A stretch of DNA of 64,000 nt from Heptranchias perlo (Eukaryota), in contig NC_090364.1 in NCBI RefSeq assembly GCF_035084215.1, positions 4,712,001 to 4,776,000 on the forward strand, given 5' to 3'. The position numbers were made by a program, and so were the translations under genes. The notes below the pieces were generated by a model. The model did no database searches, was not told the origin of the DNA, and was given only the letters and a program-made list of their open reading frames with translations. This document shows positions 2,461 through 59,837 of the stretch, in pieces. How positions within the stretch are numbered: position 1 is the stretch's first letter; each line of letters starts with the position of its first letter.

Positions 2461-5006
2461 TTAATCACTCTCCCCCAGGGTGTCCTTGTCAAACAGGTAC
2501 ACTCCCATGCCATTCTCAGGGGCTCCCAGTCTCTTCAGGTTGGTGATGTGATCTCCAAGCTTCTTGATCATCTTCACTTGTTCATCCAAGTAGTGGCTCT
2601 CCAGGAAGTCACACAACTGGAAGAAAAGATGGAAAATAGTTATGTCCAGCAAGAGATGGAGGAAGATCTGAGCTTCTCCAAGGGTTTGGATTTTAATCTT
2701 CTTGGTCTGGAGGATAGTCAAGTGGTGCACTTTAGATTGATGCATTTTATACAATAACTTTGCTCTATTAAGTGCTTAGATCCTGGGATCAGATACATTT
2801 ACTTCTAATGCAGACAGTTGGGCAATCTCCCTTTCCTGTCTCCCCTCCCCAATAAAATTTGAGCATGACACCAACAAAGCTATTGGGTATGAAGATCTTT
2901 TGAATAGGCTCAAGGACAGTAAATTTCCACCACCTCGAACTTACCCAAAGGCCCACATTAAAAACTTACATGAGGGTCTGTCCTCTCAGTGGAGAGTTTG
3001 TGCAGATCCAGCAGACTCTGGTTCACATTCTTCTCCATCTGCAGAGCTCTCTGCATCGCCTCCAGACCATTGCTCCACTCATCCTGCTCTGGCTTCTGAA
3101 AAGGGAATCAGGTCTCAGCCAGTTCACTTACAATGGATTATACAAAATACACAAGTACTGAAGGAAAATAGGGGTGAAAAGCAATCAGAGGTCCATGTTG
3201 CCATGAACCAATTGTCCCAAGAATATAGAATTACACCACCACAAGTCAAATAGTATAAATGTCTTTAAGGAGAAGTACTGAGGGAGACAGTAATAGATGG
3301 ATGTGATGATAGGGAAAGATGAAGGTGGGAGGCAGCTCATGTGGAGCATAAACACCAGCATAGACTAGTTGGGCTAAATGTCCTGTTTCTGTGCTGGACA
3401 TTCTATGTAATTATGTGCATTAGAACAAATTGCTTTAGAAATATTTAAAATTGTCCATTTAAGGGGAGCCATTCAGAAGGCCACTCCATTAAATCTAACC
3501 TTGATATCCTCCAAGATGATTCGGCCCCCACGCTGATTCTGGAATTTCAGCAGTTTCTCAGCATGCTCCCGTTCCTCATGTGACTGCTCCTTGAAGAACT
3601 CAGCAAAGTGACGCAGGGCAACATCATCCCGGTCAAAGTAATAGGACTGGTGAGATCAAAAGTAGTTGGGTATCAGAATTATCATCATGGGTATTGTACA
3701 TAAAGCCAACCTCAATATTTTGCTTTCTGTCAAGGGTTCAAGTCTCACTGAGCTTGTAGGCAGATGGTTCTGAAAACTAGCACAGGCTGACTTGCTTCAC
3801 TAACCTGGTAGAGTGAGATAATCTCACTCCTAGCAATAGGGAAGCTGGCCAATGGAAAATTACCAATTCAGCTTTGAACATGCTCAACACAATATTTCAC
3901 TTTAATCTTCACACCCAAGACTGAATTATATGTCTAGAAATTAGTGAAGGAACATAAAAGCTTACATCCTTTTCATGACTGAAATTTGAAACAAACCCCT
4001 TTCTACAACTACCACAAACAGCATTAACTTAGCACCTTCAACACTAAACATCAAGGCATTTCAGAGGAGAAACAGATACCAAGCAATAAGAGTTAGATGA
4101 CTAGAAACTGTTAGCATTTGAATGCTTTGAGAGACAGACAGAGGTGGGAAGGCAGAGGGGTTAACAGTTACACTGAGCAGGACCAAAATGGCTGAAGGCC
4201 CGACCACCAATAGAGCAAAGGCAGAGAGAGAAGACAGACAGGGACAAGCTGGTACTTAAAAAGTGAAGGTTCGGAGCATAGAAACAGGAGTGGGACATAC
4301 AGCCATTTGAGCCAACTCAATGATTTAATTAGAACATGGATCTGTACATCAACTCATCCTTCAATACCCTGACCTAACAAAAGATTTCAGTCTTGAAAGC
4401 ACCAATTAATCCCCAACATCCACAGACTTTCAAGGGAGAGAGTTCTAGATTTCCAGTACCTTTGAGGGGAAAAGTGCTTCCTCACTTACCTCCTAAATGG
4501 ACTAGCTCTAATTTAAGATTATGACCCCCCCATTGCAAGGAGAATGTGGGGAAAGACTGGAGAGATGTAGAATAGAGGGTAAGAAATATGAATCCCAGGC
4601 ATTGAATGCAGAGTGTATTGCAAAACACAACTTCAATAGAAAGCTCAGACACCAGGAAAGTGAACAATTAAGATTTAAGATTATAGAATGTGGTGCAACT
4701 ACTGCAAGGAAGAGGGAGACAGTTTGATAATGACTGGACAATAAATCACATTATATTACAGCTTTAAAAAGACATTCACCATCCATCAATTGGGGGGAGG
4801 GGGTGCAGATTAGAGAAAAGGCAATAGATGAGTTGGAGAAAACAGAATTTTGTAATGTCACATTAGAATCTCCAATGTGAAGGGGTCAAAGAAACAAAAC
4901 TCACCATAGAGAGATAAACATAGGAGGAATAGAGCTCCATATTGATCTGCTTGTTGACACCATCCTCACACTCCTTGTGATAGTTCTGACACACTTGGGA
5001 AGCCAT
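2461..5006 (-). CDS. Ferritin H/M-type subunit, gene 1 (4 exons, 176 aa)
   Basis: Exons 5006-4905, 3646-3500, 3095-2970, 2616-2461 (102/147/126/156 bp; GT-AG, phase 0 as in vertebrate ferritins). Translation [10 protein letters not shown]...[12 protein letters not shown]...LQMEK...DEQVK...[14 protein letters not shown] 5088-5081, AATAAA 2325-2320. Confidence 0.96.
3260..3420 (+). mobile_element. CR1-like LINE 3' tail in gene 1 intron 2
   Basis: GGAGCATAAACACCAGCATAGACTAGTTGGGCTAAATG..CCTGTTTCTGTG; a corresponding copy lies in gene 3 at ~13845-13995 (-). Confidence 0.6.
4277..4545 (-). mobile_element. CR1 LINE 3' fragment in gene 1 intron 1
   Basis: CATAGAAACAGGAGT...AGAGTTC...AAAGTGCTTCCTCAC...TTTAAGATTATGACCCC, the reverse complement of a CR1 ORF2 end and UTR. 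Confidence 0.6.
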
Positions 5007-5029
5007 CTTTAAATTAACTTTAACAAAAC

Positions 5030-56796: not shown

Positions 56797-59700
56797 ATGG
56801 CCTCCCAAGTGTGTCAGAACTATCACAAGGAGTGTGAGGATGGTGTCAACAAGCAGATCAATATGGAGCTCTATTCCTCCTATGTTTATCTTTCTATGGT
56901 GAGTTTTGTATTTTTGAGGCACTGTTTCAAATTAAGGTTGTGATGTCATTGTATTCTAAGCAGGTAGAATTTTTCTAGGTCAATGAATTTGCTTCAGAGT
57001 GTCCCTCTGTGACCCTCCCCAGTCTCAATCCAGTGAATACTCTTAACACAGTGATCTTGTAGACAGTCTGTAATAGTTGTGTCCTATTCTGAAATTAACT
57101 CCAGGGGTCTATGAAGTTTGTAATAGAGGATTCATGTTAAAGATGTACAAACCTGGTCAGCTGTTGCAACTTGGACAGACTCCATTAAATTTAATAGGGT
57201 GACTATTTAGTAGAACATTAGGTCCTGGCCTGTTTCTTTTCCTTCCCCACCCCCCTTCACAATTAAATGAGGAGGTCCTGAGAATCTGGTTATGAAGTTT
57301 TCCTCACTGAGGCAGGTTCCTTACACTAACTGTGATTCAAGGTGTTAAAACTGCTGAATTTGAAAGGTTTTTTTTTTTCTCTGCTCCTTAACTGTTTTTA
57401 GACTTTCAACTGGGAACAAAAGTAGGTGCCATTGAGAAGTTTAGGGTGAGTGCTGAAATGAGGCTTTAATCCAAAAGAATTACAGCTCCCTAATGTTGTC
57501 TACTAATATAACCTCCTGTTGAGCTACTTCACAGGGAGGGGTTTAACATATTCAGACAAGATCAATGAAGCAAATTAAGTTTGATTTGCAGGAGGCACAT
57601 TTCCTTAGACACTGAGCCCCTTAATTGAAAGCAGAGAATGGGTAATTTATCTGCCATGATGTTACCACTATTTTTGAGTTGGCCATAGATGAGATCTAGG
57701 TCTGACCTGACCCTTCCTTTCTATTTCATCTCTACCTACAGTCCTATTACTTTGACCGGGATGATGTTGCCCTGCGTCACTTTACTGAGTTCTTCAAGGA
57801 GCAGTCACGTGAGGAACGGGAGCACGCTGAGAAACTGCTGAAATTCCAGAATCAGCGTGGAGGCCGAGTCATCTTGGAGGACGTCAAGGTTTGATTTAAC
57901 TAAGGAGGGGTCTTTGTTATAACTTGGGTAGTTAAAGTTTCCTAATTTTATATAGTTTGGTATCTTGCCATTTCATACAATTTATTAATCTCTTGTTTTT
58001 AATACATAAAATATGTAGTGTTGGGGATGAGTGAGCACTCTGAAAGGTATAAACTGCTGAGGGTGAGTTGGTATGGCTTTGGATCACTGAGCTTGCGGAT
58101 CACTGTATGTGGATGATCAAAAGGAATGAGTTTCTGCATCACATTGCTAGCCAAAACATGAGGTGTGTGGAACTTGAAGAAAATTTGTAGCATGGATAGG
58201 GAACTGGTGTAGAGGTAAGGGGGAGAATTGGGGTTGATGGAATATTGTCATGTAGCAAGTTCCTTTTTTTTTTTGTTGATTCCTCCAGTATCAATTACTT
58301 GGATTTGGGAGAAGAGTCGATCGAAGGTTCTTGGTAATCTGAAAGTAGGACATGGTCTTCTGTTCACCTCTAATACATTGCTAAAGGGTGGTGGCAGATG
58401 TTTATATACTTCCCAGTATAATACAAGAATGGCAGATGGAAATACCTTCTAAAAGAATTGAGGTGGAAATTAATATCAAATTTAGTGACTTTAGGATCTA
58501 GGTAGGTGACAACTTTTCCATTAGTTTGCAAGTGTAACACAGATCTGAGTGAAGAATAGAATACCTGAAATTGTATTTCAATTAGTGCTGGTCAGTGCAG
58601 TTAGACTGTTGCTTTCCAGTTTTGTGTCCCACCTTGAGTACACTGACCTTAACCAATAAAGGTCTCTACTGAAGCATCACTGATTTGTTGTCCATCTTGA
58701 AGATGGAGGTTTGTGATCTAATTGAACTGTGAGATTTGACTTGGTTAATAGGGACATGAGGATACTCTTAGAATGTGAACTGGGGGAGGGGTGGTGAAAG
58801 CTTGAAGTTTTCACCACTTCACATTTGTGGAGTCAGCTGTGGAAAGCCATAGATGCAAAGTCAATTGGGGTTTTCAAAAGGGAGAGAGATCCTCAGGATA
58901 TTTAGGATTATGGCAAGAACTGGTGGGATATTGGGAATGTGGTTTGCAGCTGCTATGGCTAATAAAATGGCAGTCAGTGGACTGATTTGCTCTTTGTGTC
59001 CAGCGATGGCCTCTGTCATCCCAGTTATTATGGCTCCACAATCCTCCCTTATGATTGAGGTGCACTGATTAACTTCTGTTGCTTCTAACCCTGTTGTCCT
59101 TGTGCAGAACATCCCTTGGACTTTCAATGTCCATTGTAGCTGAATGTGCTGACAAGACAACTCTTCCCTTTTCAGAAGCCAGAGCAGGATGAGTGGAGCA
59201 ATGGTCTGGAGGTGATGCAGAGAGCTCTGCAGATGGAGAAGGATGTGAACCAGAGTCTGCTGGATCTTCACAAACTGTCCACTGAGAGGACAGACCCTCA
59301 TGTAAGTTTTAATGAATTGGAATCTGCCACTTAACTCTACATTGGTAGAAAGATTTTCATATAGGTTGGTGTTTTATACTTGCTGAGAATGGAGGTTTAT
59401 TTTTCTCTGCAAAAGCCCAGCTAAACTGTAGACCTTGATCACTAAACTACTCCCAGGGCGCACTATATAGCTGAGGCATCAAAATGGATCTTGGAGATCT
59501 TGAGTATTGTGGAATTGATGACTAGCCACTTGTGGGATAATCTGGCTAAATGTGTCAATCCCCTGAATGCTCTACTTTTACCATTATTCCAGTCCAGGAA
59601 ATTAGCAAGAATAATTTTTGATGGAGATTATCCTCACTTAACATCTGTTTGAGCTAACTACACTCTAGTTTATCTCCTTTCCTCTTCCAGTTGTGTGACT

Positions 59701-59837
59701 TCCTGGAGACCCACTACTTGGATGAACAAGCGAAGATGATCAAGAAGCTTGGAGATCACATCACCAACCTGAAGAGACTGGGAGCCCCTGAGAATGGCAT
59801 GGGAGTGTACCTGTTTGACAAGCTCACCCTGCATTGA
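56797..59837 (+). CDS. Ferritin H/M-type subunit, gene 11 (173 aa)
   Basis: Exons 56797-56898, 57742-57888, 59176-59301, 59691-59837; ends FDKLTLH*. TATA 56715, AATAAA 59920. Confidence 0.95.

Follow-up and report, generated by a model that had tools for sequence, protein, structure and literature searches.

Mosaic concerted evolution of duplicated genes is a known, indeed textbook, process. Here we describe an extreme and unusually clean example of it, a tandem cluster of ferritin-like genes in a 64,000-nt stretch of DNA from Heptranchias perlo (contig NC_090364.1, positions 4,712,001 to 4,776,000). This stretch is referred to below as the window, and copy counts apply to the window only. 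By most of the features tested the cluster is a case of mosaic concerted evolution, in that homogenised segments are far less diverged than neighbouring segments within the same gene pairs. Four described systems come close to it.

The first is the tandem HMA4 triplicate of Arabidopsis halleri, for which a model of divergence-dependent conversion and selection alone yields such a mosaic (bioRxiv 10.1101/2025.10.29.685298). Both clusters consist of tandem metal-handling genes with homogenised exons, long introns that escape, and silent sites that are carried along. However, the long HMA4 introns are 5-6% apart, compared with at least 45% here, where there are also at least 12 copies on both strands, an overwritten pseudogene and shuffled intron sets. 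The divergence-dependent conversion model is said to build on work by Teshima and Innan in 2004.

Mosaic evolution has been defined with the ruminant lysozymes as the cited case (PMC2720389), and the tandem Lyz genes show concerted evolution (PMC3141428). Like the genes described here, those of ruminant stomach lysozyme are vertebrate four-exon tandem genes in which the coding parts evolve in concert and the rest diverges, and they concern the dosage of an abundant protein. They belong to a different family and lineage, and their introns reportedly still align, whereas the five intron lineages found here do not. The mosaic evolution of the ruminant stomach lysozyme genes was reportedly treated by Wen and Irwin in 1999.

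The third system is that of fungal ribosomal-protein paralogues, for which a complementary DNA (cDNA) donor was proposed since the synonymous divergence (dS) is lower than the intron divergence (bioRxiv 10.1101/751792). These fungal duplicates are highly expressed, and in the present cluster dS is likewise well below intron divergence, but the ferritin-like tracts cross splice junctions. A dS lower than intron divergence therefore does not by itself show an RNA donor. Finally, the X-linked FTHL17-like ferritin loci of the dog include genes and pseudogenes that are more than 96% alike through lineage-specific conversion (PMC5363321). They resemble the present cluster as ferritin-family genes and pseudogenes in conversion, and are prone to ectopic recombination. 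In the dog, the common sequence is a single block of about 550 bp and the loci are separated by megabases, whereas here there are four exons of 100-150 nt in intron-containing tandem genes.

No published description of this cluster was found in a search by title and the start of the abstract; supplements and subscription journals were outside this search, and the supplements of genome papers could list the expansion. The word ferritin is absent from the main text of the whale shark genome paper (PMC8455134), and a review of ferritin mentions elasmobranchs only historically in its accessible part (PMC11719527). The interest of the cluster is that it lies near the limit of concerted evolution: exchange persists through exons of 100-150 nt after the introns have lost alignable similarity, and a dead gene is still overwritten.

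Exons and introns of the cluster

Seeds taken from the exons of one gene gave 45 matches, which make up 12 genes (G1 to G12, Table 1) with the same four-exon layout. G1 and G2 are on the minus strand and G3-G12 on the plus strand, with G4-G12 repeating at a spacing of 5.0-6.6 kb. All introns begin with GT and end with AG, and in nine copies the reading frame is open over 173-176 codons. The twelfth copy, G12, is present but truncated by the window end. The GC content of the window is 41%, which along with the repeats points to a cartilaginous fish as the probable source. We take the translations to be those of a putative vertebrate H/M-type ferritin; the four exons and about 173-176 residues agree with the vertebrate ferritin norm. 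Ferritin is a 24-mer cage of subunits with ferroxidase activity, and the likely effect of the cluster would be that many copies make near-identical subunits of one such cage.

The similarity of the exons is most pronounced in exon 4. Two motifs at its boundaries occur 11 times each, nine on the plus strand and two on the minus strand. The first-pass annotation of this DNA, made from the sequence alone, had described a stretch of about 100 nt in exon 4 as identical in most genes, silent sites and the dead copy included, and this is correct. The stretch is 102 nt long, is identical in G1-G7 and G10 (8 of the 11 copies) and is one base off in G8, G9 and G11; in the dead copy G3 it is the same as in the majority. 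The annotation had called exons 1-3 similarly close. They are indeed close, though exon 4 is closer still, the mean pairwise difference between the nine intact copies being 0.046, 0.036 and 0.026 in exons 1-3 and 0.020 in exon 4.

The introns had been called unalignable. This holds between five intron lineages, namely A (G1, G3), B (G2), C (G4), D (introns 2-3 of G5 and G7) and E (G6, G8-G11), but within a lineage the introns do align, with differences of 1-22% (16-19% in A, 3-6% between G5 and G7 in D, and 1-22% in E). Local alignment of five representatives gave z values of -1.5 to 8.2 in 29 of 30 cross-lineage intron comparisons, the sole exception being intron 1 of G7 against G11, which is partly common to D and E. 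Simulated copies fall to such z values only at 45-50% substitution, and the five lineages would appear to be at least about 45% apart.

The coding sequences do not follow these lineages. Their mean distance is 0.031 across lineages (29 pairs) and 0.030 within them (7 pairs). At four-fold sites, four cross-lineage pairs have 3-6 differences per 56-57 sites, for which the probability would be about 1e-6 to 2e-9 under a silent-site drift to 40%, and in exon 3 and the core of exon 4 there are no differences between G2, G3, G4 and G7 at 29-31 four-fold sites. Across lineages, dS is thus far below intron divergence. The contrast is weaker in pairs whose introns align (P=0.02 for G1-G3, and 0.009 for G6-G8 and for G6-G11), among which the pair G8-G9 is an exception that is taken up below.

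Separate exon and intron trees, which the annotation had proposed as a check alongside the dS comparison, are incongruent. The coding tree, with G10 and G12 left out, is a star in which none of the seven inner branches is supported. The intron trees have supported deep groups, with G5/G7/G9 and G10/G11 grouping at 100/99-100 in intron 1, and of the 20 informative coding sites, 14 disagree with those groups. Where introns can be aligned, the mismatch is 16-19% at 60-200 nt from the exon and drops to 6-12% at less than 60 nt. Homogenisation does not extend to the 3′ untranslated regions (UTRs) of G1/G3, G2 and G4-G11. Trees or annotation that rely on exons will make such copies look far younger than they are. 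Upstream of G5-G12, 600 nt are 4-9% apart and the adjacent introns 14-22% apart, and these promoters may also be homogenised or constrained.

Table 1. Positions of the ferritin-like genes in the window, and of three segments of the pseudogene G3.
Feature	Positions	Strand	Exons and remarks
G1, intact	2461..5006	-	exons 5006-4905, 3646-3500, 3095-2970, 2616-2461; intron lineage A
G2, intact	7843..10894	-	exons 10894-10793, 9307-9161, 8551-8426, 7995-7843; lineage B, without relative in the window
G3, pseudogene	12942..14842	+	exons 12942-13041, 13616-13745, 14180-14305, 14687-14842; lineage A
G4, open frame	18913..22023	+	exons 18913-19014, 20662-20808, 21349-21474, 21877-22023; lineage C
G5, open frame	24217..26969	+	exons 24217-24318, 24968-25114, 25889-26014, 26823-26969; introns 2-3 lineage D
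G6, open frame	29193..31961	+	exons 29193-29294, 30148-30294, 31370-31495, 31815-31961; lineage E
G7, open frame	34199..36938	+	exons 34199-34300, 34953-35099, 35857-35982, 36792-36938; lineage D
G8, open frame	39193..42242	+	exons 39193-39294, 40121-40267, 41580-41705, 42096-42242; lineage E
G9, open frame, putative chimera	44507..47876	+	exons 44507-44608, 45791-45937, 47216-47341, 47730-47876
G10, exon 3 gone	50230..52894	+	exons 50230-50331, 51205-51351, 52748-52894; lineage E
G11, open frame	56797..59837	+	exons 56797-56898, 57742-57888, 59176-59301, 59691-59837; lineage E
G12, cut by window end, putative chimera	61950..64000	+	exons 61950-62051, 62860-63006
Invariant 102-nt exon-4 stretch in dead G3	14717..14818	+	same stretch in all 11 exon-4 copies
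Divergent middle of G3 exon 2	13659..13711	+	differs from each of the other copies at 8-11 of 53 sites
Start of G3 intron 2	13746..13761	+	15 of 16 nt equal to G5 (25115-25130) and G7 (35100-35115); 8 of 16 against sister G1

Probable exchange between copies, and its possible templates

The pseudogene G3 is the inverted intron sister of G1. Its exon 1 has lost 2 nt and contains a stop, exon 2 has lost 17 nt, and exon 4 contains another stop. Compared with the majority sequence, exons 1-2 have 18 changed sites out of 230 and exons 3-4 have 5 out of 267. Private changes are likewise uneven: exons 1-2 have 11 in 230 sites, and exon 3 together with the exon-4 core has 1 in 258 (P=0.002). Intron 3, which lies between exons 3 and 4, remains of the A type. 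Exon 2 is itself patchy: its first 43 nt have 0-1 differences, while its middle is diverged to about the level of the G1-G3 introns. This middle part, with ten clustered changes, could be a patch that escaped homogenisation and decayed neutrally, or could come from a distant ferritin donor elsewhere in the genome.

These results bear on the proposal that there is no conversion, and that old copies in a slowly evolving genome, under birth-and-death evolution, are held alike by strong selection on both amino acids and silent sites. Purifying selection is certainly present. Singletons number 18 at 104 silent sites and 21 at 412 replacement sites (P=1e-4), so that neutrality of the private changes, in which the per-site ratio of amino-acid to silent changes is about 0.3, was rejected. 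The GC content at third codon positions is 0.66, compared with 0.38-0.41 in introns, and a run test for conversion (below) was negative. However, the low count of private changes in the second half of G3, a gene frameshifted in exon 1, largely refutes an explanation by selection only. Silent sites are not frozen, because 18 of them carry singletons, and selection cannot account for the intron flanks that G3 has in common with G5 and G7 rather than with its sister G1. We regard such an explanation as highly improbable. The annotation had held that purifying selection alone is insufficient, which is right given that silent sites vary and the dead G3 is overwritten, as long as it is not taken to mean that selection is absent; it probably keeps the exons alike enough to recombine.

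The ends of the shared tracts were compared with the splice junctions, a check that the annotation had proposed for telling DNA from cDNA donors. The outcome favours DNA, since the start of G3 intron 2 sides with G5 and G7 (Table 1); intron 2 of G1 and G3 is alignable only from about base 17 on. G1 matches G8 at 14 of the first 16 nt of intron 2. G3 matches G5 and G7 at 14 of 14 nt after exon 3 and at 12 of 12 before exon 2, and G2 matches G4 at 13 of 14 nt just after exon 3. At donor positions +7 to +16, at least 8 matches in 10 are seen in 13 of 117 cross-lineage pairs, compared with 4 of 362 controls from other introns. For acceptor flanks the same counts are 21 of 117 and 8 of 362, where it should be noted that the pairs are mutually non-independent and that acceptor flanks are pyrimidine-rich. 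By 21-30 nt the excess has vanished (0 of 117 against 1 of 362 at donor positions +21 to +30). Conversion had been described as confined to exons; it is indeed centred on them, but the word is slightly too strong, given that tracts extend 12-16 nt into introns.

In several copies the intron sets are mixed. Intron 1 of G9 groups with G5 and G7 (100/100), while its introns 2-3 are of the E type; G12 has an E-type intron 1 and a D-type intron 2; and G4 has lineage-C introns of its own between a promoter and a 3′ flank of the tandem-unit type. To judge from the sequence, these sets would be the marks of crossover inside exons. A four-gamete count of 86/190 was also considered as evidence for recombination, but was dropped, as a star tree with recurrent mutation also yields such counts.

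We consider it likely that the pattern arose by divergence-limited DNA-to-DNA conversion together with unequal crossover, anchored on the 100-150-nt exons that selection keeps alike. The copies are old, with five intron lineages past alignment, and the protein is under selection, which keeps the short exons alike. Ectopic DNA-to-DNA recombination would begin in exons because only exons remain alike, and would do so on either strand and over distances of up to 55 kb. Conversion tracts would overwrite silent sites as passengers, would at times reach the 12-16 nt into the intron, and would halt where similarity ends. Some events would be resolved as unequal crossovers inside exons, giving 5-kb tandem units and the mixed intron sets of G4, G9 and G12. 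Regions that have become too diverged, such as the introns and the middle of G3 exon 2, would leave the exchange for good.

The annotation had offered two routes for conversion, by short DNA tracts or by cDNA made with the reverse transcriptase of local retroelements. Short DNA tracts fit the data; the cDNA route is not supported. It would require that reverse transcripts of abundant spliced ferritin messenger RNA (mRNA) overwrite the exons of all copies. The silent divergence far below that of introns is the sign used for the fungal ribosomal-protein genes (bioRxiv 10.1101/751792), exon diversity drops from 0.046 in exon 1 to 0.020 in exon 4, the genes are abundant in RNA-like sequencing runs, and DNA runs contain intronless ferritin-like contigs at low depth. 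Spliced cDNA, however, carries no intronic bases and therefore cannot supply the cross-lineage intron flanks, and chimeric intron sets require DNA crossover. Precise intron loss was seen in none of 33 introns, exon-exon junctions gave no match in the window, and the 3′ UTRs have stayed unhomogenised. The fall of diversity is largely gone in the exon cores (0.029, 0.031, 0.035 and 0.011 in exons 1-4), and is confounded by CpG, of which the majority sequence has 6 in exon 2 and none in exon 4. As to a local enzyme, no reverse transcriptase domain above the Pfam cut-off was found in the 7 repeat-derived open reading frames (ORFs) scanned, out of 24 listed of at least 120 aa. A reverse transcriptase would act in trans anyway. 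The intronless contigs, in the DNA runs X1 and X10, have a depth of 14.8, compared with 236-336 on G2 introns, and are either processed copies or contamination; being about 87% alike, they are not current donors. Overall, cDNA-templated conversion is improbable.

A related proposal is an RNA-linked route in the germ line, in which ferritin transcripts that have not been spliced, or only in part, or else cDNAs made from them, would serve as repair templates. This would explain exchange over 100-150 nt and between opposite strands, the short intronic overhangs and the 5′-to-3′ gradient. We think it unlikely, but if it were true, the cluster would lend itself to assaying RNA-templated repair in nature, the intron lineages acting as donor barcodes. 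Returning to conversion from DNA to DNA, the intron lineage marks each copy, and so tract length, donor and rate could be read from long reads of a few individuals. The cluster also provides an internal test of the inference of cDNA donors, which should be of interest to specialists in gene-family evolution.

Public sequencing runs and contrary evidence

Ten public sequencing runs contain words of G2, and four of them were compared with it. The comparison covers 40 of 114 difference rows, and its values are summed contig depths rather than reads, contig depth not being the same as copy number. Organism A differs from G2 by about 2% in introns 1-2 (20/1109 and 14/591) and by 1/469 in intron 3. 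The intron contigs of this organism run only a few bases into each exon, its summed exon depth is about 10-40 times its intron depth, and the window alleles are found at about 99% of the depth.

The organism A data are relevant to the possibility of an assembly artefact, in which polishing or consensus calling overwrote exons with the majority allele from reads of many copies. In favour of this, each exon is multi-copy and spans roughly the length of one short read. However, 11 of the 12 copies keep at least two private exon variants, and G7 keeps one. The independent short reads of organism A reproduce the derived alleles, which argues against an artefact of polishing, and we consider the chance of one to be very remote. 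A further idea, that the allele shared by G2 and G4 in exon 3 is younger than the organism A split, was dropped: a DNA run is without the allele (6056/6073 of the depth has another letter), and an RNA-like run from the same sample leaves 20% open.

In organism C, four sites at which the window copies are uniform have another letter at 98-100% of contig depth: 7880, where all window copies have Val (Val to Glu, 22534/23094), 10848 (Gly to Ala, 9325/9414), 10829 (silent, 13228/13245) and 9211 (Leu to Met, 1442/1442). Over the "invariant" region of exon 4, a contig from this organism has 7 differences in 110 sites. Organism B has Glu at 7880 at 457321/543721 (84%) and Asp at 10859 at 459717/483088 (95%), where 10 of 11 window copies have Glu. 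Both silent and replacement differences separate whole species sets, which is a further point against selection as the sole explanation. The first-pass proposal of ongoing, exon-centred gene conversion is supported by these species-wide alleles, together with the contrast between exons and introns and the patchiness of G3.

The Val near the C-terminus (7880, and 2501 in G1) is present in all 11 exon-4 copies, whereas organisms B and C mostly have Glu. This is a family-wide amino-acid change, and conversion possibly spread it. Organism C has a very high summed exon depth, a hint of a large family. Runs X5 and X7 contain spliced joints at all three G2 introns, and the family appears to be transcribed, the status of these two runs as RNA being a guess from the spliced joints.

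Several observations weigh against conversion and crossover between DNA copies as the explanation. Homology of 100-150 nt is short for efficient recombination in vertebrate cells. In G8-G9 the silent divergence equals that of the introns (8/55, P=0.72). The annotation had proposed a GENECONV-type test; a Sawyer-type run test on coding sites, in our own implementation and with low power when all copies are alike, gave no significant single tract after correction in 45 pairs (best P=0.022). Variable sites are not enriched at exon edges (21/160 against 35/356, P=0.29). The falling 5′-to-3′ exon diversity is what a cDNA model predicts. The likeness near junctions can partly reflect constraint on splice signals; such constraint can preserve flanks, yet it cannot make the sisters G1 and G3 side with different lineages. 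The last two points concern age. Organism B has a 5′ end which, in a comparison by eye, equals the G1 UTR at 19 of the first 20 letters, as well as some cover of G2 intron 2; the G1-like and G2 lineages therefore probably predate the organism B split, which makes turnover of alleles across the whole family likely, but this is a hint and not proof. The copies could postdate the split from organism C, whose contigs, representing 72% of the run, give no usable cover of G2 introns; this lack of cover does not count as evidence.

Deletion in G10, regulatory elements and repeats

G10 is otherwise a recent sister of G11. Its exon 3 (126 nt, in frame) is gone because some 360 bp of genomic DNA have been deleted at about 52410-52414, corresponding to 58989-59351 in G11. 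The deletion is imprecise and has short microhomology. The loss is recent, because intron 2 of G10 is only 1% from that of G11. From its sequence, G10 could encode a shortened subunit.

Vertebrate ferritin mRNAs usually bear an iron-responsive element in the 5′ UTR. Here, the window had no Rfam match of any kind, and none of the 12 copies has the loop motif between its TATA box and ATG. A TATA box is located 62-97 nt upstream of the ATG in most copies (for example 24134-24216 and 56715-56796). The cluster may thus escape iron-dependent translational control, and in an expanded ferritin-like cluster with no detectable iron-responsive element, iron storage may be set by gene dosage.

Two segments, 54301-54987 and 16877-17559, are 3′ fragments of an element like a long interspersed nuclear element, which we take to be of the CR1 type. 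The first of these contains the longest repeat ORF (228 aa), which had no Pfam match above the cut-off; it resembles eukaryote clusters that are unnamed, and the only RVT_1 neighbour is a weak one (0.85, 30% of members). Tandem Repeats Finder reported one trivial array in the window. Intron 1 of G4 contains two inverted copies, 98% identical, of a 412-nt element (19494-20440), and a related element is found downstream of G10 at about 53070-53480. Finally, positions 10-414 and 17598-18002 form an inverted match of 405 nt with 96% identity, far closer than the other repeats in the window, and this pair would represent either a recent duplication or conversion outside genes.

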